Shown here piece by piece: positions 13,315-34,800 of a stretch of DNA of 64,000 bases. Where the stretch lies: contig JAUCBJ010005675.1 of the NCBI GenBank assembly GCA_032718475.1, positions 1 through 64,000 on the forward strand, read 5' to 3'. Within the stretch, counting starts at the first letter, position 1; every line of letters begins with the position of its first letter. The translations under genes and the position numbers were made by a program. The stretch is from Nemertoderma westbladi (taxonomy: Eukaryota > Animalia > Xenacoelomorpha). Below the pieces are notes generated by a model, which was not told the DNA's origin, made no database searches, and saw only the letters and a list, made by a program, of their open reading frames with translations.

Positions 13315-16300
13315 ACCCTACTGCCATATTAGAATGTAGGAGAGAGTAGGAAGGTGTACAACAGTGACATACAATAATGCAGGAAAGAGTAGGAAGGTGT
13401 ATCACCATTACTGCCATACCAGAATGTAGGAAAGAGGAGTAAGTTATACCACCATTACTGCCATACTAGATTGTAGGAAAGATTAGGAAGGTGTACCATA
13501 CTGGCATACCAGAATGTAGGAAAGAGTAGGAAGGTGTACCATACTGCCACTCCAGAATATAGTAAAGAGTAGAAAGGTGTACCATACTGCCATGCCAGAA
13601 TGTAGAAAAGAGTACGAAGGTGTACCATACTGCCATACCAGAATGTAGGAAAGATTAGGAAGGTGTACCATACTGGCATACCAGAATGTAGGAAAGAGTA
13701 GGAAGGTGTGCCATACTGCCATACCAGAATGTAGCACAGAGTAGGAAGGTGTACAAAATACTGCCACACCAAAATGTAGGAAAGAGTAGGACCGTGTACC
13801 ATACTGCCACTCCAGAATGTAGAAAAGAGTACGAAGGTATACCATAGTGCCATACCAGAATGTAGGAACGAGTAGGAAGGTCTACCATGCTGCCATACCA
13901 GAATGTAGTACAGAGTAGGAAGGTGTACCATACTTCCATACCAGAATGTAGTACAGAGTAGGAAGGTGTGCCATAATGCCATACCAGAATGTAGTACAGA
14001 GTAGGAAGGTGTACCATACTTCCATACCAGAATGTAGTACAGAGTAGGAAGGTGTACCATACTTCCATACCAGAATGTAGTACAGAGTAGGAAGGTGTAC
14101 CATAATGCCATACCAGAATGTAGTACAGAGTAGGAAGGTGTACCATACTTCCATACCAGAATGTAGTACAGAGTAGGAAGGTGTACCATACTTCCATACC
14201 AGAATGTAGTACAGAGTAGGAAGGTGTACCATACTTCCCTACCAGAATGTAGCACAGAGTAGGAAGGTGTACCATACTTCCATACCAGAATGTTGTACAG
14301 AGTAGGAAGGTGTACCATACTTCCATACCAGAATGTAGTACAGAGTAGGAAGGTGTACAATACTGCCATACCAGAATGTAGTAAAGAGTAGGAAAGTGTA
14401 CCATACTGAAATACCAGAATGTAGTAAAGAGTATGAAAGTGTACCCTACTGCCATATTAGAATGTAGCAAAAGAGTAGGAAGGTGTACCATACTGCTATA
14501 CCAGAATTTAGGAAAGAGTAGGAAGGTGTATCACCATTACTGCCATACAAGAATGTAGGAAAGAGTAAGAATGTATACCATACTGAAATACCAGACTGTA
14601 GTAAAGAGTATGAAAGTGTATCCTACTGCCATATTAGAATGTAGGAAAGAGTAGGAAGCTGTACCATACTGCTATACCAGAATTTAGGAAAGAGTAGGAA
14701 GGTGTATCACCATTACTGCCATACCAGAATGTAGGGAAGAGTAGTAAGTTATACCACCATTACTGCCATACCAGATTCTAGGAAAGATTAGGAAGGTGTA
14801 CAACAGTGACATACAAGAATGCAGGAAAGAGTAGGAAGGTATACCATACTGCTATACCAGAATTTAGGAAAGAGTAGGAAGGTGTATCACCATTACTGTC
14901 ATACCAGAATGTAGGAAAGAGTAGTAAGTTATACCACCATTACTGCCATACCAGATTGTAGGAAAGATTAGGAAGGTGTACCATACTGGCATACCAGAAC
15001 GTAGGAAAGAGTAGGAAGGTGTACCATACTGCCATACCAGAATGTAGCACAGAGTAGGAAGGTGTACAAAATACTGTTACACCAGAATGTAGGAAAGAGT
15101 AGGAAGGTGTACCATACTTCCATAGCAGAATGTAGTAGAGAGTAGGAAGGTGTACCATACTTCCATACCAGAATGTAGCACAGAGTAGGAAGGTGTACCA
15201 TACTTCCATACCAGAATGTAGCACAGAGTAGGAAGGTGTACCATACTTCCATACCAGAATGTAGCACAGAGTAGGAAGGTGTACCATACTGCCATACCAG
15301 AATGTTGTACAGAGTAGGAAGGTGTACCATACTTCCATACCAGAATGTAGCACAGAGTAGGAAGGTGTACCATACTTCCATACCAGAATGTAGTACAGAG
15401 TAGGAAGGTGTACCATACTTCCATACCAGAATGTAGTAAAGAGTAGGAAGGTGTACCATACTGCCATACCAGAATGTAGTACAGAGTAGGAAGGTGTACC
15501 ATACTGCCATACCAGAATGTTGTACAGAGTATGAAGGTGTACCATACTTCCATACCAGAATGTAGCACAGAGTAGGAAGGTGTACCATACTTCCCTACCA
15601 GAATGTAGCACAGAGTAGGAAGGTGTACCATACTTCCATACCAGAATGTAGTACAGAGTAGGAAGGTGTACCATACTGCCATACCAGAATGTTGTACAGA
15701 GTATGAAGGTGTACCATACTTCCATACCAGAATGTAGTACAGAGTAGGAAGGTGTACAATACTGCCATACCAGAATGTTGTACAGAGTAGGAAGGTGTAC
15801 CATACTTCCATACCAGAATGTAGCACAGAGTAGGAAGGTGTACCATACTGCCATACCAGAATGTTGTACAGAGTATGAAGGTGTACCATACTTCCATACC
15901 AGAATGTAGTACAGAGTAGGAAGGTGTACCATACTTCCATACCAGAATGTAGTACAGAGTAGGAAGGTGTACCATACTTCCATACCAGAATGTAGTAAAG
16001 AGTAGGAAGGTGTACCATACTGCCATACCAGAATGTAGTACAGAGTAGGAAGGTGTACCATACTTCCATACCAGAATGTTGTACAGAGTAGGAAGATGTA
16101 CCATACTTCCATACCAGAATGTAGTACAGAGTAGGAAGGTGTACCATACTTCCATACCACAATGTAGTACAGAGTAGGAAGGTGTACAATACTGCCATAC
16201 CAGAATGTAGCACAGAGTAGGAAGGTGCACCACCATTATTGCCATACCAGAATGTAGTACAGAGTAGGAGTAGGTGTACCATAATGCCATACCAGAATGT

Positions 16301-17234
16301 AGGAAAGAGTAGGAAGGTGTGCCATAATGCCATACCAGAATGTAGGAAAGAGTAGGAAGGTGTACTATACTGCCATACCAGAATGTAGCACAGAGTAGGA
16401 AGGTGCACCACCATTATTGCCATACCAGAATGTAGTACAGAGTAGGAGTAGGTGTACCATAATGCCATACCAGAATGTAGGAAAGAGTAGGAAGGTGTAC
16501 CATACTGCCATACCAGAACGTAGTACAGAGTAGGAGTAGGTGTACTATAATGCCATACCAGAATGTAGGAAAGAGTAGGAAGGTGTACTATACTGCCATA
16601 CCAGAATGTAGGAAAGAGTAGGAAGGTGTACCATACTTCCCTACCAGAATGTAGGAAAGAGTAGGAAGGTGTACCATACTTCCCCACCAGAATGTAGGAA
16701 AGAGTAGGAAGGTGTACCATACTGCCATACCAGAATGTAGTACATAGTAGGAGTAGGTGTACCATAATGCCATACCGGAATGTAGGAAAGAGTAGGAAGG
16801 TGTACTATACTGCCATACCAGAATGTAGGAAAGAGTAGGAAGGTGTACCATACTTCCCTACCAGAATGTAGGAAAGAGTAGGAAGGTGTACCATACTTCC
16901 CTACCAGAATGTAGGAAAGAGTAGGAAGGTGTACCATACTGCCATACCAGAACGTAGTACAGAGTAGGAGTAGGTGTACCATACTTCCATACCAGAATGT
17001 AGCACAGAGTAGGAAGGTGTACCATACTTCCCTACCAGAATGTAGGAAAGAGTAGGAAGGTGTACCATACTGCCATACCAGAACGTAGTACAGAGTAGGA
17101 GTAGGTGTACCATACTTCCATACCAGAATGTAGCACAGAGTAGGAAGGTGTACCATACTTCCATACCAGAATGTAGTACAGAGTAGGAATGTGTACCATA
17201 CTTCCATACCAGAATGTAGTAAAGAGTAGGAAGG
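13315..17234. repeat. 43-bp tandem satellite, left part
   Basis: Unit TACCAGAATGTAGTACAGAGTAGGAAGGTGTACCATACTTCCA. The 43-aa period of the minus-strand ORFs equals three units. Confidence 0.97.
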
Positions 17235-17414
17235 TGTTCGCGGTATTTCAACTTTTCATAACGCGAGTTGAATATTTTTTGTACTTATTTAAAATGATTA
17301 TTCCGATATCACTACTGGGTGCGGGATCACGGGTTTGGGCACACTCTATGAACTGGGGGCGATTTATGGGCGAATATTGGGGCGACTTACAGGGTACGGG
17401 ACTCATTTCATGTT

Positions 17415-17450
17415 TATAAGGGCCAGGGGTGGGAGGCAAAATTAAGCAGT
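17415..17450 (+). promoter_or_regulatory. LTR core promoter: TATAA with a CAGT initiator about 30 nt downstream
   Basis: TATAA at 17415-17419 and CAGT at 17447-17450; the same arrangement is in the 3' LTR. Confidence 0.55.
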
Positions 17451-18321
17451 ATTCAGGTTCGCCTGAGTACTATTAGGCCTAGCCCACGCGCCAGGCCTAA
17501 AGGACAAGGACTGCCCTTAGCGGTCCCTGGCCAACAGCAGTTATTACGAGCCTGAAAAGGACATCGGAACGCCGGCTGCTTGTGTCAGGGATTTGCGACG
17601 GGAAACGACACGACAGACCCCTAGCCAAGCCGTACTGGTTCTCGATGATCGTTCCCTTCGGGGTTCGTGAGGGGTGGGATGGACACGCGAAAGGGTCTAC
17701 TGACTAACAGAGGAAGGGTTTGACGAGGACTGCCCTTAGCGGTCTCTGGTCAACAGCAGTTATTACGAGCCTGAAAAGGACATCGGAACGCCGGCTGCTT
17801 GTACCAGGGATTTGCGACTGGAACCGACGACAGACCCCTTAGCCAAGCCATACTGGTTCTCGATGATCGTTCCCTTCGGGGTTCGTGAGGGGTGGGACGG
17901 ACACGCGACGGGGTCGAAAGACAAAGGACTGGACTCTACTGGCCTACCGCCTGTTCGGAGTAGTTTCTCGGCCGCCGAAGCGACTACGAGCCTGAATAAG
18001 GACTCGGAAAGCCTAGGAGGTTGGGTCTCTGCGATGAACCGACGGACCCCTAGCCAAGCCGTACTGGTTCTCGATGATCGTTCCCTTCGGGGTTCGTGAG
18101 GGGTGGGATGGACACGCGAACGGGTCCATCGACACGACAGACTCCTAGCCAAGCCGTACTGGTTCTCGATGACCGATCCCTTCGGGGTTCGAGAGGGGTG
18201 GTACGGATACGCGACAGAGTCTACCGACTGGACTGACCCTTAGCCAAGCCGTGCTGGTTCTCGATGATCGATCCCTTCGGGGTTCGGGGGGGGGGGGGTG
18301 GAATGGACACACGACAGGGTC
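17448..18321 (+). ncRNA. structured RNA array in the LTR: leader hairpins, Y-type long hairpins and five X-type kink-turn/UUCG hairpins
   Basis: X units at 17615-17698, 17833-17915, 18044-18127, 18139-18222 and 18235-18321 have covarying closing stems (GACCC/GGGTC versus GACTC/GAGTC) and the core CTC-GAT-GA-YCG...CCC-TTCG-GGG..CG-WGA-GGG. Confidence 0.65.
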
Positions 18322-18906
18322 GACCGACACCGACACTACGGCATCAAGACTAGGACCGAGGGAAAATCTGGGGAACATTAGGCTAAAATCTGAGCGAACA
18401 GTGGGTAATTAAATAATTTACTGTAGGGATTTATATTGTCGTGTATTATTATTGTGAATAATTTGGTGTATATTGGTTTGGGGAAGCCCAATTTATTCTC
18501 AATCAAGGTTCAACTGTAGGGAAGTTACATTAAAGCGTATATCCAACCAATGCAGCTTTTTCTCAACCGCAATCTTGCATTTAAGAACATTCCTTCTCCA
18601 CAATCAATATCCGGTGACTGGCCGGGATTCCGTGGTCTGTAAAATTCCGCCTCCAGCATCGGCGTTTTCCCCCATGGTGTCGGGAATAACGGCAACAAAA
18701 TTGAAAATAAAATCGCGGCCAACTTCAACTGGTGGAAGTTGGGAATCCTACAATACTCTTCAAAATCTCTCCGTGCTTACCAGCACCCACTACGAGGAAA
18801 CTCTGGTATTTGAGTTAAGACAAAGTCGTGGTCTAATAAATCAACAAACTCGATCTAACCAACTCGTAGTCGGCAGATCACACATTTGGAGAGTTGTTAA
18901 CAGGGA

Positions 18907-19098
18907 ATGGAAGTATCGATCACACCCATTGATATAATCCAAGTTGAGCCAGGAATCTGGCACGTCGAGGTTGAAGTACAAGGAACGAACGTCGGACAAT
19001 TCAGGATTACCGTTCGGGTGGTCCAGGCTGAGTACAACACCTACGAGGAACTATTTTACGACATCGCACATCTAGCTATCAACGAGGCGCTACAATGA
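18907..19098 (+). CDS. small acidic upstream ORF (63 aa) whose stop overlaps the gag start (ATGA)
   Basis: ATG at 18907; TGA at 19096-19098 overlaps the ATG at 19095-19097; protein-like composition. Confidence 0.4.
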   Translation: MEVSITPIDIIQVEPGIWHVEVEVQGTNVGQFRITVRVVQAEYNTYEELFYDIAHLAINEALQ

Positions 19099-22000
19099 CA
19101 ATGAATAACGTATCCGATACCGATGAGATGGACCACCACACAGACTCGGAAGCCGACGAGGTACCAAACGTCAAGAACATGGCCCGTCGACTAGGTGCTC
19201 TCAAAGGCGGAGTCACACGAGCGTATCAACGCATAGAGAAACAACTCAAGGGAGTCGAAACCCCCCTCAACGAGATACAAACTCAGCTTCAGAATATCCG
19301 AAGTATTCTACAACGATATGAGAGAATGATACAGGCGTACCAAGAACTCATCCCCACCATCGACTAGGTAAACTACCCCAAATTGGAAGAACACGTTGCA
19401 CGCCTAGACGAATTCCGCAAACAACACCGGAGAACCCTCAGCCTCGTGAGAGGCTACGAGGAACAGTTCTACAAGAGAGCTGAAAGAACGGACGCAGAAT
19501 CAGTGCGAACCTCCAACACCAGGACCACAATTCATCGAAAGAGAACGGGGTCCTCAAGACACCAGCGCTCCAGCGCTAGGAGCGAGATATCCGGCTCAGC
19601 ACGCAGTTCTCAGGGGGGGCCGCCACTCCGAGATCAGCTACGAGAACAGAAGGCATTAGCCCTCAAAGCTCGGATGGAAGATGAGTATGTTCAACTGCGA
19701 ACCGAGCAAGATGTAATAGCCGCCGAAATGCAAAAACAAGAGGCCGAGCAAGCGGCCAAATGACAGGCCGAGCAACGTGAACAGGAAGCTGAACAACGTA
19801 AATGGGAAGCTAAACAACGTGAACAGGAAGCTGAACAACGTGGACGAGAAGCCCAACAAGAGATCGAACAACGTAAATGGGAAGCTGAAATGTGTAAACA
19901 ACACGCCGAGGCCCAAGCGATTCTCATACACAAAAAGAATGCGGATGTTGCGAAACTCGCGGAGTACGAAGCCGCACTTATAGAATGAGATATTCAACTC
20001 TACGAGGACTGGGAAAGGGATATAGATCAGAATTATGAACCAATACCGATACCAGAATTAGAAAAGTCATTAACGACACCAGCGGTGAAACCCCCGAAAC
20101 CCGAGTTCCCGCCTACCATACAGTCTACGTTATCGGCACAAGCACCGGTATTCCATCCCCCACCGGTTACGCTGAAGAATGAGGAACCTTATATCCCAGC
20201 TAACCCCACGATCCCGAGCGTCCCCAAGTACGAGCCTGAAAAGGACTCGGAACGGATCGCTACTCCCCGATCCAACAACCCGTTTACATCCACACCACAA
20301 ACCCGTAGTCGTGTCATCATTAAGATTCCACCTATCATTGATCCATCGAGTATGGGAGAGAGCGCCAATAACTATAACCCTCCAAACCACTCCAGTTCGG
20401 ACGACGTCGGCATTATCCAGGCATTGGAAAACCGCCTCTCCATGCCCAAGATGGAGATCCGCACCTTCGAAGGAGATCCCGTCGATTACCTCAGATTCAA
20501 GAAACGGTTCTTTGCGCAGATTGGATCAACGGACATAGCCGACGCACAGAAACTGGTATATTTATCACAATACCTGGGTGACAAACCACGCCGAATCATC
20601 GCTTGTTTTGAGGGAGGTTCTCATGAAGCATACTACGATGCATGGAAAACTCTAGACAAAAGATACGGAAATACCGGGACTATAATTAATAAAACTCCAG
20701 AGAAACTGATACAGGACGCGGGATCACTAGGGGACCCACAGAACATCCAGGAATTCTCAGATTCCATGAAGGATGCCTACTACACTCTGAAACCTTTAAA
20801 TAAGGAGGACCAGGTGAACAACATTCTAAACCTCCGACAGATCGCCCGGAAGTTCCCCGGATGGCTGCAAAGTAAGTGGGCCTATAAATGCGTAGATCTC
20901 CGGCGCAGACATCCAGATCAAGACCCCAGCTTCCTCGAAATGTCGGGATTCCTGGACGATATCTCCGAAGCCATGAATGACTCGATGTTCTCGAAACAGA
21001 GTCTCGCCAAGTTGGACGCAATAGAGAACAACTCCAGGAGTAAGACACCCACTCAGAGGCCGAGATTCCGCCCCCCTCCGGTGAGCACGATGGCTATCAC
21101 CATGGCCGAGGATTCCGACGATGAAGACTACGAGGAACCAACATCAGCCGAGGAATGGGCGTGTTATCTCGCGAATTGGGCACCCGAGAGGGAAGGCATC
21201 ACAAACTCCCTTCTCTGTCTCTATTGTGGAGAGAAACATAAAGTTGAATTCTGCAGGAAGTTCCAGTTTGCCGAACTCGTCCCACACTTCGAGGCGATTA
21301 TGAAACACCGAGGATGCTTCCGGTGTCTGGGAACAGGTCACTACATTCGGGATTGCGACCAAAGGTCGTGTTGTGCGGTTTGTAACGACCTACGTCATCA
21401 CACGCTCCTCCACATCCCCGCGAACTTCGACTTCACCACCCTCCCCTTTCGGATTGAAGCCAAGCGAAGAGGAGAAACAAACCATGTTTCTAAAGGAACC
21501 CGGACAACCCAACGGAGAGAAACCAACCCGTTTAAAATCGCCACTAACGCATCACCAGTGACAAATATCTCAGCCACGATTAACCTTATAAATCGCCGTT
21601 ACATGGTCTTCGCCAAAGTAATCCCAGTAAGAACTCAAGGGGTCGGTAAATCCTTGACGATGCTCGCGTTCCTTGACAACGGGTCGGACGGAACCATCAT
21701 CGACCGGGATTTCCTCGAGCAACTCGGCCTAGACTATGAGCCTTGCAAACGGCCCATACAAACTATCACCGACCACAGAGAGGTAGAATCCGGGGAAGTG
21801 CAACTCCAGATGGAAGAGGTAATGAAGGGCTATGAGACGGTTAAGCTGACCATCAAGAACGCCTTAGTACACACAGACCTCCGAGTGCGGTTCCGACAAT
21901 CAGCCGAGTACGCCCCCCTCATACAGCTGGACCGAGACGACGTGGATCTAAGGTGCCCGCCGTTGGATGTAAACCGCATCACCCTACTGATCGGACTCGA

Positions 22001-25000
22001 TACACCTGAACTACACATACCCACCGGAGACGTCGCCCGATCTATAAAGCAGGATGACGGCTTTTACGCTGAACGAACAATAATGGGATGGACACTCTGC
22101 GGCATCAAGGAAGAGACTACCGACACCTATACATACCTTCCTAAATGTCAGATTAAAGAAAATGCAACATCCGTGGGTTATTTCTCAGCTACAGACCTCG
22201 ATGAGGATTTATTTCTTGAGACCGAAAAAACCCAGCAAGAGATGACTAAATACTTTAATCTAGAGACCCAAGAGTTCGCTGAAAAGGACTAAAACCCGTC
22301 CGAGGAGGATCAATATTGTATGGATGTCCTGGACCAGGCCACGTTCAACGACGGACACTGGTGTTCACCCATGTTATGGAAGGACCCAAGCAAACCAATG
22401 GCAAACAACGCCAACATGGCCCTTAGGCGACTTAAGGGGATTCTACGCCGGCTGAATGACCAACCCGAGATAAAAGAGAAATATAACACCGTAATCAAAG
22501 GATATCTCGAGGATGGATTAGCAGAAATGGTACCACGGAATGAACTGCAAGGGGGTAAAAGAACATATTATCTTCCAACCCACTATGTGGTAGAAGCCCG
22601 GAAGGGCGGTAAAATCCGAGTAGTTAACGATGCCGCTGCTATGTACCAAGGCGAATCCCTGAACAGTCAGCTTTATACGGGGCCCAACATATATAGTACA
22701 CTTATCGGCGTATTGATCAGGTTCAGAGAAAACCGGATAGCATTCACCTGCGACATCAAAGCCATGTTTCACCAGGTTCGTACGCTACCAAGAGACTCAG
22801 ACTGTCTATGTATCCTATGGACGGATAAAACACTAACTCAACTGGAGATTAGTCAACTTACAATGAAGGATGTAGACGTAATGCGTATGATCGTCAGGAT
22901 CTTCGGAGCTAAGGACTCGCCGGTAGCATGTAGTGACATGCTGAAGAAGACGGCAACCATGTGCGAAAACGAGTTCCTTCCAACCATCATAGAAACCATC
23001 CGACGATGCTTCTACATGGACGACGGATGCGCCGGCGCAGATAATGTGGACGAGGCATATCGGCTAGCAATGGGAATGGTAGAATGTTTAAAGAAAGGAG
23101 GTTTCCCGCTCGTGAAGATCAGATCCCACGACAAAAAACTTATGGAAAAGTTTCCGGAGGACATCCGACTGGACAACAACAAAATGTATTCGGAGGATGT
23201 GGAACACCGTGTACTTGGTATTGAATGGGACATAGAATCAGACGAATTCATTTTCAAATATAAACCCCTACCCAAGCCTATGACGAAAAGGGGATGTTTG
23301 GCGATAAAAAGCGCAATCTTTGACCCACTAAATTTCATATCTCCGGTAACCTTGGCCAGAATGAACCTGATTAAGGAAATGTGGATAGAAGGACTGGGAT
23401 GGGATGAAGAACTCCCCCCACACCTCAGCGTCAAATGGAGAAAATGGACGGACCAGCTCGAACACCTACATCTTATGCGGATCCCTCGACCGTTCTTCCT
23501 CGATAAACTACCCACCGATATCTTCCAGCTCCATACCTTCTCGGATGCTTCGAATACCGGAATCGGCGTAGTCACCTTCTTACGAAGACTAAGCAACGAT
23601 GGAAACGGCGATACGAGCTTTTTATTTTCTAAAGCTAAGACAGTATCCGGGGAATTCGTAGCAACGATTCCAAGACTCGAGCTACAGGCTGCAGTTTGGG
23701 CAGTGAGACAGAACCGCATGGTCATGCGGAACCTACGAATCCCCATCGAATCTCAACACTTCTGGGTTGATTCGAGCATCGTTCTCTACTATCTCCACTC
23801 TCCATCCCGACGTCACACTACGTTTGTAGCGAACCGAGCCGCGGAGATAAAACAGTGTACCGGCCGAGAACAGTGGCACCACGTAAACGGGAAAGAAAAT
23901 CCAGCGAACTTATCAAGCCGAGGCGCCACCCCAAAACAACTCGGTAAAAGTAAACTCTGGCTTACAGGCCCGGAATTCCTACAGCAGCCACAATTAACAT
24001 GGAGTACCCGATTCGACCCCGAACTCGATAGTGGAAAATACTCCGAGGACGACAAAGAGATCCGTAAAGTCCATAGAAGCAACGCAGTGGAAATTTATAG
24101 TTGTCTGACTGAGCCTGCAAAGGACTCGGGCAGGCACTATAACGTTGCGACGATCATTCAACCAGCGGCGTCTTTACATCTGTTAATCGAGCGAACTTCA
24201 TCAATGAGACAGGCTCATCCACCACGTTATAACCCTTCGCAACTTCCTACGGTGGAAAGACAACAAGCCGATAGTTCAACGGAGTATACAAGAACTCATT
24301 ATCGTGGAGAAGTGTATCGTTGGATATGTCCAGAGAGAAAGTTTCCCCGATGAGTGGGAACAACTCAGTGCGGGCAAGACCTTGAAACCGGACAGCCCAG
24401 TCTACCAACTGAGAACAATGATGGGAGAGGATGGACTGATCCGACTGAATACCCGGATGGCAAACGCCCCGGTCGAATATGAGGTTAAATACCCGGCGCT
24501 TCTGCCCGGAACTTCGACACTAGCCAAGCTATTAATTCAACAATGTCACGAGGAAAACCATCACGCAGGACAGAACTGGATTATAGCTAATATAAGACAA
24601 AGATATTGGATCACACACATCCAGCCACTGATCCGGAAAGTGTTGAAACGTTGCTTTACCTGCAGAAGATATCTAGCACCACCACTCACACAAAAGATGG
24701 CCGACTTACCAGCCACCCGTCTACAGCCCGATTCCCCACCGTTCTACGTCACCGGAGTGGACTGTTTTGGACCGTTTACGGTCATCGAACGACGATCCAA
24801 CATCAAATGCTGGGGAGCCATTTTCACCTGCCTTAGGTCTAGAGCAATCTACCTAGACATTGTGGTAAACCTTACGCAACACGCATTCATCAACGCTCTG
24901 CGTAGGTTCGTGGCGAACAATGGGACATGTCGTCACATGTACTCCGATAATGGTACAAACTTTGTGGGAGGAGAAAGAGAACTTAGAGAGGCGATCGAGG

Positions 25001-25718
25001 AATGGTTTACCGATAACACCGCATCCCAAGTCTGGAAGGAACACCAGATACAGTGGCATTTCCAGACACCATTAGCACCCCATACGAGCGGGGTATGGGA
25101 GAAACTGATCGACTTAGTAAAACGATCCATGGCGTCGCACTAGGAGACACCCGGGTAACCCATGACACCCTCCGCACAACATCCTGCGAGATCATGGCTA
25201 CCCTGAACAACCGGCCCATTGTCCTTATCTGCGACGACCCCACAGACCTGGAGCCCCTCACTCCTAACCACCTACTGGGGAGACCCAAAACTCATGTTCT
25301 CCCAGAGACAATGTTTCCGGATCCCAACGATATCGCGAGACATACAAATTGGAAGAAGGCCCAAGCGTTGGCAGCGCATTGGTGGAGAATCTGGGCCCAG
25401 GAGTACCTCATAACCCTCCGGACCAGGAGGAAGTGGAACAACACCTACAGGAATGTCGAAGTTGGCGACATGGTGCTGGTCAAAGAAGACCTCAAAGACC
25501 ACGTCCACTGGCCTGTGGCGCGAGTCGTGGCAATACAACCGAGCAAAGACGGACTTGCGAGGACTGTGACGATACGAACGGCAAAGGGCCACTACCAACG
25601 CCCTATCCAGAGGCTGTGCCTTCTTGAAGGCAATGACAGCGGTGACTCTACGAGAGGTGATAAGTTCCCTACTCAAGATCCTGCTGCAGACATTGGTGAC
25701 AATGCTAAAACCGTGTAA
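19095..25718 (+). pseudogene. BEL/Pao gag-pol polyprotein (Gag with 3 Zn knuckles, aspartic protease, RT, RNase H, integrase), broken by stops and frameshifts
   Basis: CLYCGEKHKVEFC / CFRCLGTGHYIRDC / CAVCNDLRHHTLLH; AFLDNGS; CDIKAMFHQV and FYMDD; HTFSDAS and IPRLELQAA; HHAG..CFTC, GVDCFGP, SDNGTNF and GVWE; WPVARV and RPIQRL. Confidence 0.95.
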
Positions 25719-25996
25719 ACCCTTCTCATCCTGTTGACAAACTCTTTAAAACGTGATTTATCGACAATGAAAAATGGACCCCCCTTAAACCAACTGTAAC
25801 CACGCAATGGTATTTGTGTTTCCTCGTGTGTTATGTGGAGTCCAGCATCACCCTGCAGATGTTTCGACTGACGCAGGGTCGTTTATGTATTGTTTACCCT
25901 GATTTTGGTCATCGGGACCAACGATATTGGATTATTGGAAATGGTAAAGATTTGAAGTGGAATTCATTGTATCCATTGTAGTATGTTATGTTGTCC

Positions 25997-26408
25997 GTTG
26001 CGTGCGCAGTTCGGGGCGTAGGCGGTGTAACTAGTCCAGCTGTAGATCCCGGATTGCCGCGCAACACCCCCTCTATCCCGTTATTCTGGTGGGTCCATGG
26101 TGCATCCACATGACTTCGACGATAGAGGGTTTTATGTTTCTCAGTCGCGTTATTCTGGTGGGACCGTTGCGTGGATTTTGGGGCGTAGGCGGTGTAACTA
26201 GTCCAGCTGTAGATCCCAGAATGTTGCATAACCCCATCCCACATGACTTCGTCGACTGAGCTTTATGTTGTTGGGAGTGTTATTCTGGTGGGTCCCTGGT
26301 GCATTCCACGTGACTTCACTCCCAGCGTCTTCATTGTCCGTTACGTGCGCAGTTTGGAGCGTAGGCGGTGTAACTAGCCCAGCTGTAGATCCCAGATTGC
26401 CGCGTAAC
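25997..26408 (+). ncRNA. modular structured RNA element between pol and the accessory ORF (A1-B1-B2[A2]-B3-A3)
   Basis: Three copies each of two conserved cores, set in closing stems that differ in sequence but remain complementary. Confidence 0.7.
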
Positions 26409-26930
26409 ACCCCTTCCACAACAAAGATTTCCCAAAGAAGATGATTGAATGTAGTTGGAAAAGATGAAAAGAATCAGACAACTCTACTATAAACCGAATG
26501 GTGACGCGTATGATGATGAAAATGAAATGATGCGCACCCTGGTGCTGCGCTTATAACAAATGATGATAGCCGGGGGGCTATAACCCCAATGATGATGTGG
26601 AAATAAATGAAAATGTGAAATAAATGAAATGTGATGAAATAATAATGAGAAATGAAAAAAGACAAAAAAAAGGTATAAAAAAGTCTAAAGAAAAGAATTG
26701 GAAAAAAGAAGAGGACATAAAAAGTCATAAAAACTGGTTGGATATTAATGTATAGCTATAGTAACTGTAAATGCTGAATGTATTAGTAATAAGATGATAG
26801 ATGCCTATATAGCAATGTTATTTAATAAACTGAATTAAAAATAAACTGAATTATTCTGCAATCACTATAGTTTCAGACTTTCTGGACTTATAATTAACTG
26901 ATATAATTTGCAACGGACATAATTGTAAAT

Positions 26931-29536
26931 ATGGACCCAAATCGCCAAATTATCGGCGAATTACGTAATACGATAGATCTACTGGAATATCCACAACCCG
27001 GATCCCCTAACTTTGATACAGATTGGAACACCCTAATAAATGAGAATGTGCGATACGTCAAATTCTGCGGGCGAGAGGGACCGGATTCCCGGAATCTACG
27101 AGCCCTCCGGTTGGCCGATGCTAGTACGAGACTGAAAAGAACTCGGAACGCAAAGGCTACCGGAGGGGATGAGTTGTCGTATTGGGAAACGTTCCGGCAA
27201 AGCGTCTACAGATCCCGATGTTTGATATACGACAACGAGGGAAATGCGACGCCCACCTCGAAAGCGATGACGTTGGCGCGATGTCAAAGTTTCGTCGACG
27301 ACAAGAGTACGTACCTCACACACTGGGGAAACCTGTCGGAGTGTACGGCGACGCTACGAGAGGAACGTATATCGATCATCCAGAATCGCGATGACTACCG
27401 GGAAAAGTACGGAGCGAAAGAATACGGTCGATCCTTGGTCGTCGTCCTCGGAACCCTGGACGGTTTGGTATTGGTGTGTCGAATATTTCCAACACCCAGA
27501 CAGGAAGTGCAGGCAGCCGGAGCGATCTGGTTACTACCTCCGGAAATCCAAAAGATCCTCTTCGACTTCGACGTCATTAAAATCGGGTCGGATATAAAGG
27601 CGGACGTCCGGAACGACTACGCGAACGCTCCTTCAGGAAGAGACCGACGAGACGACCTCAACGCCCTTAGCCATTGCGTCGACACTCAAACGCTATTAGC
27701 CTGGTTACGATTCGCCGAGTTCATGCGAGGATTCCAAGAGGTGAGACCGACGAAATCCGGGATTGGCTACCTCGCTGTGCTAAACGGCGGCATCGACTTC
27801 AAACCTCAGAAACTCCGGGATTATAATAAAATATATGGTGGATACCCGGGATTAGAAATAAAGAGCGAGCGAGAGGGTCGATGGAAGGACGTGGAGAGAA
27901 AGTGGACGATACACCAAAAGTGGGAGAATCCGGAACGACGGAACTACATCTACGTTGTTATGGAATCATACACCGTCGCTAAGTTTATCTGTAAAACCCT
28001 CGATAACCTCATTATGGCGGTTCCTCTTTCCTTCGTCGACTACGACTGGAACGAGGTTGTAAACCACGCGTTCAAAGCGGTCGAGAACATTACACCGGGA
28101 GAGATGAAAACGCTCGCCGTCATCGATTCCTGGGACGAGAGCGGACCTTACGACATCCCTACGATTACCGATCTTCTCGGTGCGGAGGAGCCTCTGATTT
28201 CTTCGGAAGGGGAAGAACTATGGCTGCAGGAGGGCATTCTACTCTCCACCCCGAAGCGACAACTCGAGCCGGAGGCCGCTTACCAACCGGCAGCCAAACG
28301 GGTTGCCTCCGCCGAACCTGCGACGGAAGCGGGCGTTTCCTCACCTCTTGGCTCCGGTAGCCCTGCGAGGGAGTTAATCACCACCTCCGCGTTGAGCAAC
28401 TTCGGCGATATATGCCAAAGGTTATCCCCATATCATATCCTTTCCCGGGTGGCGAAGACTGGTCTTCAGAGATTCCGAGTACCAGCAACCAACGGTCACG
28501 CTCAGCGATACTGGTTGAAAAGGGTCCCAGCGCTGCGCCGACTCCCGACGATCTCCTCGGAATCCCTCGGTCGAAAACCCCGGCACCTCTTCGCCGACCA
28601 GCGGTGGCTACTACACCCTCCGTTCCTCAGGATCCTATGCGACTAACCCGTTGGTACGCCGAGCAAACCGAATGGATCCACCGCCAGAAACGGTCGTCCG
28701 AGTTGAGACCGGCAGGACATAAAGAAGGTTATCGGAGCGAGGACCTACTACGCAAAAGCCCAGCCTTCCGCGGGCTACCAGCCACCGCGAATATTCAGAA
28801 GAGTGACCGACGACTCGAGTATTACGTCGGCGTCCCGATTCCGATATTCCCCGGTCGAGAGATGCAGTTGGAGGTGTGCGGTAACTGCGGTTCGGAGCAG
28901 TGCCCACGCGGTAAAAGAAATCGGGTTACCGATTCGTGCCTCCAGCTCCTCGGGATACTTTATTGCCCATACTGCGCGACATCGGGCCACGACGTTACCG
29001 TCTGTCCGATCCTATATAACCTCTGCACTACGTGCAGTTTCCGTGGACATTCCGCTAGCCCCCGCTGCTATATCAAATGTCCTACCAAAGACGTTACCGC
29101 TATGGGAAATATGGTCATGTTTGAAACATACGCAAACAGCCACATAAGGACCAAAACGCGGAGAAACGCTGGGAATATCGCGCAGGAGATGGCGTGCGGG
29201 TATTTTTCCTTCCCGGAGCGCCTACATACGACGGCAAAGCTACCTTTCCATTATGTGGATCTGCTGCTGAGCGCCGGATTATTCGGCCCATTTGAAGTCC
29301 TTAGACGCTTAAACTCGTATAAAGAGGAGTTCGGTGACGGAGAGTGGTTCCTTGAGGCTCGCAACTCCGAGTTGGAACGACAAACCGATATGATCCCGTT
29401 GCCATCGAAAGGAAGAGCCGCCAGGAGACAAGCCGAAGCGTTGCTCACGATGGATGTTGACGCTCCTCTACCAGCTCTAGCGATCGACGAGAGTCGACGG
29501 GCGAAGAGGAGAAAGGCGTATCAGAGAAAGAAATAG
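26931..29536 (+). CDS. accessory ORF in the env position: DnaQ-like (WRN/EXD/Egalitarian-type) 3'-5' exonuclease fold, P/S/A linker, Cys/His zinc knuckles and basic tail; one -1 frame change near 28360-28410
   Basis: VVLGTLDGLVLV..LPPEIQKILFDFDVIKIGSDIKADV..CVDTQ..SGIGYLA..W...NYIYVVMESY; then CGNC..., CPYCATSGHDVTVC, CTTCSFRGHSASPRC and RRAKRRKAYQRKK. Confidence 0.65.
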
Positions 29537-29714
29537 TGGACTGGGATATTCCAGGAACATTTATTGAACACTTATTTTTATACATATATATATATAAACT
29601 CTAGGCCAAATTAATCAAGACTATGCAATATTAAAATTTTGGGGTTTTTTATATGGGAATGACCTACGCAAACTCAATCTACCGATAGACCTCACGAAGG
29701 TCATTGGGGGGGAC

Positions 29715-30557
29715 TGTTCGCGGTATTTCAACTTTTCATAACGCGAGTTGAATATTTTTTGTACTTATTTAAAATGATTATTCCGATATCACTACTGGGT
29801 GCGGGACCACGGGTTTGGGCACACTCTATGAACTGGGGGCGATTTATGGGCGAATATTGGGGCGACTTACAGGGTACGGGACTCATTTCATGTTTATAAG
29901 GGCCAGGGGTGGGAGGCAAAATTAAGCAGTATTCAGGTTCGCCTGAGTACTATTAGGCCTAGCCCACGCGCCAGGCCTAAAGGACAAGGACTGCCCTTAG
30001 CGGTCCCTGGCCAACAGCAGTTATTACGAGCCTGAAAGGGACATCGGAACGCCGGCTGCTTGTGTCAGGGATTTGCGACGGGAAACGACACGACAGACCC
30101 CTAGCCAAGCCGTACTGGTTCTCGATGATCGTTCCCTTCGGGGTTCGTGAGGGGTGGGACGGACACGCGACAGGGTCGACCGACACCGACACTACGGCAT
30201 CAAGACTAGGACCGAGGGAAAATCTGGGGAACATTAGTTAGGCTAAAATCTGAGCGAACAGTGGGTAATTAAATAATTTACTGTAGGGATTTATATTGTC
30301 GTGTATTATTATTGTGAATAATTTGGTGTATATTGGTTTGGGGAAGCCCAATTTATTCTCAATCAAGGTTCAACTGTAGGGAAGTTACATTAAAGCGTAT
30401 ATCCAACCAATGCAGCTTTTTCTCAACCGCAATCTTGCATTTAAGAACATTCCTTCTCCACAATCAATATCCGGTGACTGGCCGGGATTCCGTGGTCTGT
30501 AAAATTCCGCCTCCAGCATCGGCGTTTTCCCCCATGGTGTCGGGAATAACGGCAACA
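29715..30557 (+). repeat. 3' LTR (843 bp) with a single Y and a single X hairpin module
   Basis: Direct repeat of the 5' LTR, preceded by the PPT and followed by the TSD. Confidence 0.95.
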
Positions 30558-31010
30558 GAAGGTGTACCATACTTCCATACCAGAATGTAGTACAGAGTAG
30601 GAAGGTGTACCATACTTCCATACCAGAATGTAGTACAGAGTAGGAAGGTGTACCATACTTCCATACCAGAATGTAGCACAGAGTAGGAAGGTGTACCATA
30701 CTTCCATACCAGAATGTTGTACAGAGTAGGAAGGTGTACCATACTTCCATACCAGAATGTTGTACAGAGTAGGAAGGTGTACTATACTGCCATACCAGAA
30801 TGTAGCAGAGTAGGAAGGTGTACCATACTTCCCTAGCAGAATGTAGTACAGAGTAGGAAGGTGTACTATACTGCCATACCAGAATGTAGGAAAGAGTAGG
30901 AAGGTGTACCATACTTCCATACCAGAATGTAGCACAGAGTAGGAAGGTGTACCATACTTCCCTACCAGAATGTAGCACAGAGTAGGAAGGTGTACCATAC
31001 TCCCATACTT
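30558..31010. repeat. 43-bp satellite, right part (a last remnant follows at ~37139-37162)
   Basis: The same unit resumes in register after the BEL TSD. Confidence 0.95.
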
Positions 31011-31132
31011 GAATAAAGGAAGCGAGTTAATGTAATGGAACGATGCCTTTCGTGGTGTAAGCATACTCAAATTATAAATATTAATGACGAGTAAGGGTCT
31101 TGAGCCACGGCTAATATAAAATATTGTTAGTT

Positions 31133-31865: not shown

Positions 31866-34800
31866 TTAGTACAGTCCAATACGGGGAACTACAGTGTTAA
31901 GTGGGGGGCGATGCAAGTTAATTAGAACCGCTTCAGAATGAATCCTACGCTCGTGGTTAGTAAACCTTTTAGAACATGTAATATTGAGCGCACCGATCCC
32001 ACAAATAGCAAAGTGTTGCAGTAGCAAGACTTCAGGACCCGATAAATCGACTCCTAGCCCCTTGCGAGCTGCGTCAATTATGGCACTACGGTAACCTCGA
32101 AGGCGCTCATGTAAACGCTGTTCTGTCTTACCGAAATACCACAAGTGTGGATGCAGATTACATTTGAAAAATTAATCACATTAAATGATTTGCAGTTAAA
32201 TCTCCCATGGATGGGGTCACCCCATGGTGTCCGGCGCTGGTCTAGAACGGCCGAGCATTTGCAACGAGGCCCATTGCAAGAGTGATTACCAAGAGGCAGA
32301 GTTGGCTTGGACTTGGTGATCAACAGTTTACCTAACGATGGGAGGTTACGCGGGACCGTTTGGACACTAATACCTAGCGAACGCAAGTCAGCATTATATT
32401 TGCGGATAACGGGCTCTAGGACAGGCAGGAACTGTGGGGTCGTAGGGAGATATATAGAGGTGTATTTTGGCCCACTCGATGTAGTCTTATTTAAATTTTG
32501 TTGGAGTGCTGATGGACCATCCCCCCTCCGTTGGTAAAGACGGCTGCTGTGTGATCGGCACTGGACCAAGAGGTGTTGGGGTTTGACGCATGGAGGGAGA
32601 GGAGGAAATCCAGCGGATAGCCTCGGTTCTCACACAACTGGAGGTACTGGTGTTTATAACATGTGAAAAAATGGTGTGAGTCAGTTAAACGGCGAATACG
32701 CAAAATTTCAGATTTCACCACTGCCCGTAACGTAGGTTTATGGTGGAAACTAGAGTACATAATAGGTAGTTTATTAGCCATGGTTTTCTAAATAAACGAG
32801 TTCTAAGGGTGTAGGCATTAGTAGCAATCGTTAGATCGAGGTAGTCGACACTAGCATGGGAGTAATGCATTGTAAATTGGATGGCATCAATATTATATAA
32901 ATTCCTACAAGCTGAGTTAAATTCAGTCTTCATGAACTCGAAATGCTCATCAGTTAGTCGCTCATCGTAAATGGCGAAACTATCATCCACCAGAGTACGA
33001 AAGAATGAAGGAGTCCGTAGCGAAATAGTTATCGCCCTCTTGAGTACTTTGTACGAACTGATTATAGAATAATCACTACTGTGGTGACCGCCCATAGGTG
33101 CTCCTGCGTTTTGCAGGTAGTACATTATTCTGATAAAAGAAAAAGTTGTGGTATAGAAGAAACCGTAAAATTGCTGCGAGTTGAGTTGGTGTAAAAATAG
33201 AACGTTCAGATAACGTAGGATCCTCAGAAAGTGCATGCATGGTAGCCTCAATACCCAATTCATGAGGGATGGCGGTAAACATTTCGATTACATCAATAGT
33301 AACTAAAGTAAAATGGGAATTATTAGTTGTTGTAGGCATGGTTTGTTTGAGATCCAAAGAGCTTTTTAGATAGTTATCGGCAGTAGTAACTAAAGGGTGC
33401 AGGTAGTGGTGCATCATTTTGGATAAGGGTTTAAAAAATGCGTCCGTATTAGATATAATAGGTCTACCTTTTGGGATTAGGGCACCATTAGGGTGGGTTA
33501 CCCATTCGTCACGTGGTTTATGGTCTTTAAGAATTATAAAGATATGGCCGGTAGTGAAGGTATTAGGGAAGTGGTGATGGCGAAGCCGTTGGTTCCCAAT
33601 AGCAAGGGAATCTAATAACGATCGGCATTCAACACGAAATCGTGCAGTAGGGTCTTTGCGTAGTTTCACATATGTTTCTTATCACCCAAAATTCGAAGGA
33701 TCTCATATTCCTTAGCAGATTTATCCAATAAAATAATATTACCAGTTTTGTCACCTTTAAGGAATGCTAAATTCTTATCGGTTAATAATAATCAATAAAT
33801 TGTTATTCCCTGTGCTGTTCTCGAACGGTTGCGCGAAGAAGGTGTGTCAGGAATGAGAACTCCAGCACGGCGGTCGAGTTGCAAAGGAAAATCTGGGTGA
33901 AAATTGCAGTCTACCCGGGGTCGGGTCTGTGGAGCCGGCTGTGGGTTCGCTCTGTTCAGCTCCTGTAATACGTCCACAAGGGGTGTTGGTTCATAAGCAT
34001 CTGTATTCGCGGCTGGGAATAGTTTTTTGCGGGCCGTTGTTGGTTGCAAACGAGTATGAGTTAGTTGCGTGGCAGTACTAACCTTGGGAGTAGCAGAAGT
34101 GTTTGATGCTACAGGGACTTCGGTGGCACGATGCAGTTGGCCAGATGTTTGAGGGGGCGTTGCTGATTGTTCATAGATAGGTAGATTAACCAATTTTCGA
34201 AATCTAGTTCTAATTTTCGTTGCTGCTGAGGCTACGTCAATCTTAGCCTCTAGAACATCAGAGGGCGCTGTACCATGGTATGGAATGAAGGTAAACCCCA
34301 ATCCAAGCAAGTTTCTTTGGTCCTGGTTGAGGAGTATTTTAGAAAGGTTATTTACTGGTGCCTGCAGAATGGGAAATGGATTCGTAGATTGAGGGTGGGA
34401 GGGGTCCAAATCACGGAATCGTTGGTTGGACGGAACTCGTCTATTTGCTGTATCTAAATAGCGACTCATAACTTCCCGTCCCATCTCAAAAGAAAACTTG
34501 TATTCCAGACGTTGGCATGCAACCTCCAACTCACGCTCACCAACCAATGGTAGGTAGCCAGGCGTTTAGATACAGCGTAGCGATATAGTTGCCGCTGTTG
34601 ATAGCATCCTGTTCGAGACGGGAAAGGCATTTGCTAAACGCAATCTTTAATCTCCTGAGCGATTTATACTTTAGGTTGAGCTCTTGCCGAAAGATTTTCG
34701 TTAAAAGTCCCTTATATAACGTTGGATACAATTGAATAATTTGTTGCAGTCGTGCTGCCATAAATTGCGGCGGGAAACCAGCACGGCGGCAATCTTCAAA

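Follow-up and report, generated by a model that had tools for sequence, protein, structure and literature searches.

A predicted array of repeated and nested RNA hairpins between pol and an accessory reading frame of a BEL/Pao retrotransposon from Nemertoderma westbladi

The interval between pol and an accessory open reading frame (ORF3) of a BEL/Pao LTR retrotransposon from Nemertoderma westbladi harbors six predicted hairpins of two types, arranged in the order A1, B1, B2 holding A2, B3, and A3 within an interrupted outer stem. This array is a real and probably selected RNA structure, and selection acting at the level of the sense RNA has likely preserved its stems, as supported by compensatory changes between the modules, the variants among family copies, and the strand asymmetry of the predicted fold. 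As far as searched, the array is specific to this element family, being of a known kind and a new design, and an element for export, packaging, or localisation appears to be the best class for it.

The host element and the predicted array

The retrotransposon spans positions 17235–30557 (13.3 kb) of the window, i.e., the whole stretch of 64,000 nucleotides that was analysed. It is inserted, with a 5-bp target duplication, into a 43-bp satellite, which was found around it at ∼14900–17234 and 30558–31100. Pfam analysis identified a DUF1759 gag, protease, RT, Peptidase_A17, integrase, and DUF5641 in this order between the LTRs, placing the element in BEL/Pao. The 120 pol relatives listed showed 33–40% identity, the named ones coming from cnidarians, fishes, a mollusc, a nemertean, and an echinoderm; a search of viral contigs for pol relatives returned none. 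Judging from the LTR pair, which is identical at 835 of 838 aligned bases (leaving aside a 624-bp block and a 4-bp insertion), the insertion is young, though gag-pol (split into six frames in this copy) and ORF3 are broken by stops and frameshifts. The stretch is covered by hundreds of variant contigs that three studies obtained from one organism, which indicates that the element belongs to a multi-copy family, the contig depth giving no copy number. A TGG-type primer-binding site was absent directly behind the 5′ LTR (18698–18730), no primer-binding site was identified, and a tRNA gene search of the 64-kb window found none. The features of the element are as follows:

17235..18697, + strand: 5′ LTR (TGTT...AACA), with the target duplication outside it and five copies of a ∼95-nt structured unit inside
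19032..25718, + strand: BEL/Pao gag-pol, with a zinc knuckle following DUF1759
25942..25962, + strand: 5′ arm of the predicted interrupted outer stem (fold prediction)
25997..26065, + strand: hairpin A1, with an 8-bp and an 11-bp stem, a symmetric GUA/GUA internal loop, and a 10-nt apical loop; z −4.1
26069..26129, + strand: hairpin B1, with a 9-bp closing stem, pyrimidine-rich internal loops, and a GUGG/CCAC helix; z −2.5
26140..26260, + strand: hairpin B2, its apical loop replaced by A2; z −3.1
26166..26232, + strand: hairpin A2, nested in B2, apex retained and lower stem diverged; z −0.6 alone
26270..26326, + strand: hairpin B3, with an unrelated 10-bp closing stem; z −1.8
26340..26408, + strand: hairpin A3; z −3.8
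26414..26434, + strand: 3′ arm of the predicted outer stem (fold prediction)
26436..26830, + strand: AUG-stop barrier, with 28 upstream AUGs, four AATAAA nearby, and a TATA-like site at 26674
26862..26876, + strand: candidate splice acceptor (TTTCAG), a motif 3′ of the last upstream AUG
26931..29536, + strand: accessory ORF3, two overlapping frames in this copy, with a putative DEDDy-exonuclease-like domain, Cys-rich knuckles, and a basic C-terminal end
29715..30557, + strand: 3′ LTR, with a G-rich polypurine tract just before it and without the 624-bp block

The array begins 270 nt 3′ of the pol stop. The A-B-B(A)-B-A order had been proposed in a sequence-only reading of the same DNA, and all the strings and coordinates quoted there were recovered: core A starts at 26016, 26183, and 26359, the 5′ halves of core B at 26080, 26149, and 26279, and the 3′ halves at 26106, 26239, and 26306, with A2 nested in the middle B. 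The recurring TTATGTT-like linker, described in the same reading, occurs three times in the array and four more times elsewhere in the 64 kb. Folding of the modules, which the reading had advised as a check, supported the stems: the closing stems of all three B modules and the stems of A had a mean pair probability of 0.92–1.00, also within the fold of the whole 1.2-kb intergenic region. Each B is indeed predicted to be closed by a different stem; those of B1 and B2 are homologous, and that of B3 is unrelated (chance ∼3e-4 for 9 pairs). A closing helix suspected between 25935–25962 and 26414–26435 was predicted as an interrupted helix of 25942–25962 with 26414–26434 (P at least 0.9). Among family copies, four positions of the distal outer stem (unphased) are variable, and at least one of these changes would open a pair.

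All A copies retain a 35-nt apex with the symmetric GUA/GUA loop, short helices, and the 10-nt loop, which has tolerant positions, and all B copies retain the internal loops. Since the apical loop of B2 was lost to A2, the apex of B appears dispensable, and since the lower stem of A2 has diverged, the base of A appears to be a scaffold. The string of the B core (GTTAT and RTGAC) is present as had been reported; however, it was predicted to form two internal loops flanking a 2-bp UC/GA helix, 3.4–4.2 kcal/mol better than a GTTAT/RTGAC helix, the core being too invariant for covariation to decide its register.

The 521-nt domain was predicted to fold at −183.7 kcal/mol. Its sense strand had a z of −3.22, with none of 100 shuffles as good, whereas the antisense strand had a z of −0.92, with 18 of 100 shuffles as good. 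With DNA folding parameters the two strands were equal (−65.0 and −63.8), and the strand asymmetry appeared only with RNA parameters. In terms of folding stability alone, the array is not exceptional compared with the rest of the element: a z of −2.5 or lower was reached by 1 of 15 80-nt windows over the array versus 15 of 442 over the whole element. The A1 window had the lowest energy of all 442, the other 14 array windows failed to reach that z, and 150-nt tiles over the array gave z of −1.9, 0.3, and 0.2.

Other structured sequences were observed in the window. Strongly folding 80-nt windows were found in the LTRs at 17416–17525 and 29896–30005 (z −5.8 and −4.4) and inside pol at 24076–24155, near a frame break (z −6.8, from 20 shuffles only). 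The ∼95-nt LTR unit is present in five copies in 17606–18325 and in one copy at 30086–30180, the sole copy kept by the 3′ LTR. It is predicted to form a long hairpin capped by a CCC-UUCG-GGG tetraloop, with one compensatory pair between copies, and had no match in Rfam; its internal loop resembles a kink-turn. Penelope-type-like fragments lie at 31866–34565 on the − strand, with RT-like frames and a GIY-YIG match (Pfam E 0.07).

Stem changes, family variants, and searches for relatives

Seven stem pairs change on both sides between modules yet stay canonical. Three lie in A (G-C/A-U, C-G/U-A, and G-U/U-A). Of the four in B, the closing stem holds A-U/G-C and U-A/A-U, the upper helix has U-A/A-U, and C-G/U-A adjoins the core. 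Three of the seven are double transversions and two are of the CpG-decay type, the latter including one of the double changes emphasised earlier, GTTCGG/CCGGAT versus GTTTGG/CCAGAT. CpG decay as the sole origin of the double changes was rejected, as five of the seven are not of that type; CpG is not depleted in the element and its flanks (observed/expected 0.9–1.3). The simulated chance of so many double changes was 0.0018 for A1/A3, 0.006 for A1/A2, and 0.0018 for B1/B2, and that of so few broken pairs was 0.002–0.085; these values are optimistic, since the columns were picked after seeing the fold. In the alignment of the A copies, 97% of the cells were paired as against 34–47% when the partners were slid, and 12 of 500 shuffles scored as high, one of the four double changes in this test being a gap artefact.

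The contigs of the three studies gave a second line of evidence. For 25925–26445, 19 substitutions were listed, of which the modules contain 11 and the 5′ linker the other 8. Five of the module substitutions give or keep a canonical pair, five fall on unpaired sites, one exchanges a mismatch for a mismatch, and none breaks a pair; some variants may be misplaced, as contigs may align to a sister module (92 of 534 in one sequencing run, X1, fit two places). Random substitutions that break pairing in other family copies, regarded in the sequence-only reading as the sign against selected stems, were not encountered among the 11. At three sites, the copy at 17235–30557 is mismatched where other family copies pair. 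At one loop position, the three A copies here agree with each other but most contigs aligned to A1 and A3 differ from them, pointing to homogenisation among the modules. The claim of selection on RNA structure is supported; the identity of loops and cores is weaker evidence for it than had been supposed, since homogenisation within a lineage may have made the modules alike. A diverged low-depth subfamily, with 12–16 differences, was also visible in the contigs. Sequences of a further run, X6, presumed to be RNA from another organism, covered the flanks of the array but not the array.

A search of Rfam 15, likewise advised beforehand, gave no match to the array at gathering score, the sole overlap at E ≤ 10 being a minus-strand miRNA model (E 3). 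A pattern scan for core A found none in viral contigs and none in metagenome contigs. Covariance models of A and B detected neither module in the 79 related BEL loci examined (the best 79 of 555 confirmed pol relatives), and over 535 kb they retrieved only the array's own copies, the B model missing B2. As no homologue was found outside the family, deep covariation is absent. A search of open-access literature listed no cis-acting RNA structure for a BEL/Pao element, and Pumilio, Smaug, box C/D, Sm, and zipcode motifs gave nothing telling inside the array. A pseudoknot of 5 bp between the A apex and its 3′ flank was set aside as geometrically implausible. Direct repeats behind pol were present in 7 of the 38 related loci with at least 600 nt there. 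Six of these loci were folded, and a distant BEL relative (L072, 2796–3021) showed three near-identical tandem hairpins right behind pol. Of eight long ORFs located 3′ of pol in the related loci, five were gag or protease of permuted assemblies and three had no Pfam hit.

The proposed role and its alternatives

The 495 nt between the array and the ORF3 start contain 28 AUGs, each opening an ORF of 1–43 codons. The 225 nt at 26436–26660 hold 22 AUGs, where 5.1 would be expected. RTGATGA words resembling box C account for five of these; the part also has weak CD-box Rfam hits and a repeat number that differs among family copies. Four pyrimidine-rich YAG sites occur in the intergenic region, three of them at or in the array; the fourth, the candidate acceptor at 26876, follows the last upstream AUG, with no AUG before the ORF3 start at 26931. 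One candidate donor lies near 18404 in the 5′ LTR (motif). Hence, the motifs fit expression of ORF3 from a spliced RNA, with the array in the intron and so in unspliced RNA only. AATAAA sites at 26602, 26619, 26824, and 26840 permit an alternative transcript map.

On balance, we consider it probable that the array is a CTE/RRE-like multivalent protein-docking site for the export or RNP assembly of full-length unspliced RNA. The six predicted hairpins, three A and three B, would present several docking sites on the sense RNA, and the array would label this RNA in its unspliced, full-length form, much as a retroviral CTE or RRE does, so that it is exported from the nucleus or assembled into RNPs. 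ORF3 would be expressed from spliced RNA via the acceptor near 26876, the array being intronic for that RNA. The contact sites may be the conserved cores, i.e., the A apex and the B internal loops, with the stems acting as scaffolds only. The ligand would more likely be a host export or transport factor than ORF3 itself. The nested B(A) likely arose from a template switch at a 4-nt microhomology common to A and B, and its helix would afterwards have been re-tuned through a double transversion.

A stability element is a rather improbable alternative, in which a pyrimidine-tract protein bound near the pol stop would protect the gag-pol RNA, which has a 3′ region of ∼4.8 kb, against nonsense-mediated decay. 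The short distance of 270 nt from the pol stop, the U-rich linkers, and the pyrimidine-rich internal loops agree with such a role, for which RSV provides a precedent in the available text of two papers (PMC10309623; PMC4764554). However, a decay shield has no obvious need for two distinct conserved cores on covarying stems, and the domain has 54% GC and is mostly paired.

Slightly less probable still is a regulator of splicing, internal polyadenylation, or read-through in the pol-ORF3 interval. The four AATAAA, the TATA-like site, and the candidate acceptor lie 170–470 nt downstream of the array and the three other YAG sites at or in it; but all these are motif matches only, and in the 1.2-kb fold the array does not pair with them and the modules stay intact. 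We assign the same low standing to a neutral origin, namely a template-switch duplication of two hairpins that were then homogenised, with repair of single-stranded DNA, templated by the hairpins, having perfected the stems. The microhomology at the junction of B(A), the signs of homogenisation, the direct repeats behind pol in 7 of 38 related loci with at least 600 nt there, and the unremarkable stability speak for such a by-product. Against it, 25 of 166 pairs are G-U, which DNA repair would remove, the strand asymmetry appears only with RNA parameters, and the internal loops are unpaired and invariant while adjoining pairs change.

It is very unlikely that the array is a dimerisation or loop-receptor device, with A loops forming kissing pairs or docking (3:3) on the internal loops of B. 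Duplexes were predicted for A-A (−6.2), A-B5′ (−4.7), A-B3 loop (−7.7), and B1-B1 (−9.0 kcal/mol), but matches this short arise often, most family contigs differ at the palindromic position of the A loop, and the apical loop of B2 is lost. The two remaining suggestions of the sequence-only reading fared worse. A new self-cleaving ribozyme or aptamer, as invariant cores on exchangeable stems might suggest, is highly unlikely given unbranched hairpins, no Rfam 15 family at gathering score, no hammerhead core on either strand, and a cleavage within genomic RNA that would destroy the template. The least probable is an IRES for ORF3, since the large structured domain upstream of the second ORF is separated from its start codon by the 28 AUGs and their short ORFs.

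Known systems, ORF3, and the wider meaning

The docking-site reading can be compared with several known systems. The array and the CTE of MPMV share a 3′ location in their elements. The CTE loop motif AAGACA was absent from the array on both strands, and by sequence the array does not belong to the CTE family. The likeness lies in the design: in the available text on the MPMV CTE, duplicated, sequence-conserved internal loops that bind NXF1 are borne on stems of an intron-retaining RNA (PMC4338338), and repeated invariant internal loops on paired stems are predicted for the array. The array differs in having two core types in three copies each, one of them nested, in lacking the CTE loop motif, and in its place in an invertebrate-type BEL/Pao element. 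The direct repeats (DRs) of RSV, reported to bind export factors, are likewise a repeated cis element beside an auxiliary gene, as far as the available text goes (PMC7551171). However, the DRs flank src, whereas the modules are all clustered upstream of ORF3; their sequences were compared via Rfam.

For the protein side, the available portion of the work on C. elegans Cer1 describes CERV, a Rev-like protein for the export of unspliced RNA; this extra protein of an LTR element bears Cys-rich motifs of RNA-binding type together with a KRKK-like basic signal (PMC10309623). ORF3 has Cys-rich knuckles and a basic end, and its splice acceptor is only a candidate. CERV differs in its unrelated domains and in being made from a spliced gag-overlapping message, and the available text of that paper uses none of the terms cis-acting, stem-loop, and RRE (PMC10309623). 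LTR elements are described as capturing ORFs behind pol in the accessible part of PMC6431247. The bdelloid rotifer elements Juno and Vesta carry DEDDy-type ORF3s expressed from spliced messages, i.e., an extra exonuclease-like ORF behind pol that was suggested to act on structured RNA; the term secondary structure is absent from the available text (PMC5408684). The present ORF3 differs in residing in a BEL/Pao element and in its added zinc knuckles.

The assignment of ORF3 is less direct. No Pfam match to ORF3 of this element was found, and both AlphaFold models were unusable (pLDDT 35 and 33). A single relative, P0121 (648 aa), was found among 1.84 billion representatives; it matches both frames of ORF3, with 29% identity for each half. 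It contains nucleocapsid-like knuckles and a weak Pfam exonuclease hit (DNA_pol_A_exo1, E 0.2). Its nearest Atlas cluster, a lead only, is a euglenozoan exonuclease with CCHC knuckles (0.86), with 10 of 10 family hits in one family/clan, and a search with P0121 retrieved only itself. Relatives of ORF3 were found in none of 7997 candidates, none of the viral contigs, and none of the 79 related BEL loci. By eye, residues resembling the acidic DxE, D, and YxxxE motifs (Exo I–III) of DEDDy exonucleases were seen. On these weak matches and the one relative, ORF3 likely has a DEDDy exonuclease-like domain plus zinc knuckles.

The exonuclease-homology domain of Egalitarian binds a helix without using its catalytic residues, according to the available text (PMC13186709), and ORF3 is hence a plausible ligand of the array. 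Signals bound by Egalitarian, e.g., the I-factor ILS, likewise comprise several stem-loops per RNA. They need 3′-strand bulges and share shape rather than sequence (PMC13186709), whereas A1 and A3 have a predicted 5′-strand bulge and the cores are invariant. Two helices of at least 6 bp with 3′-strand bulges, as in Egalitarian-type signals, were not found in the predicted fold, the B upper helix being of 5–6 bp behind internal loops.

How unspliced RNA of invertebrate-type LTR retrotransposons exits the nucleus and enters particles is largely an open question. The array is compact, carries built-in compensatory controls, and is directly testable in reporters, and it neighbours a rare exonuclease-like, zinc-knuckle ORF of a kind that is without demonstrated function. 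It is possible, although we consider it unlikely, that ORF3, with its exonuclease-like fold and zinc knuckles and expressed from spliced RNA, binds the A3B3 array and licenses the export or packaging of the unspliced genome, which would constitute an independent Rev/RRE-like switch. If true, such a switch would give a BEL/Pao element a regulatory circuit like that of complex retroviruses and would assign a function to the DEDDy ORFs found repeatedly in retroelements.
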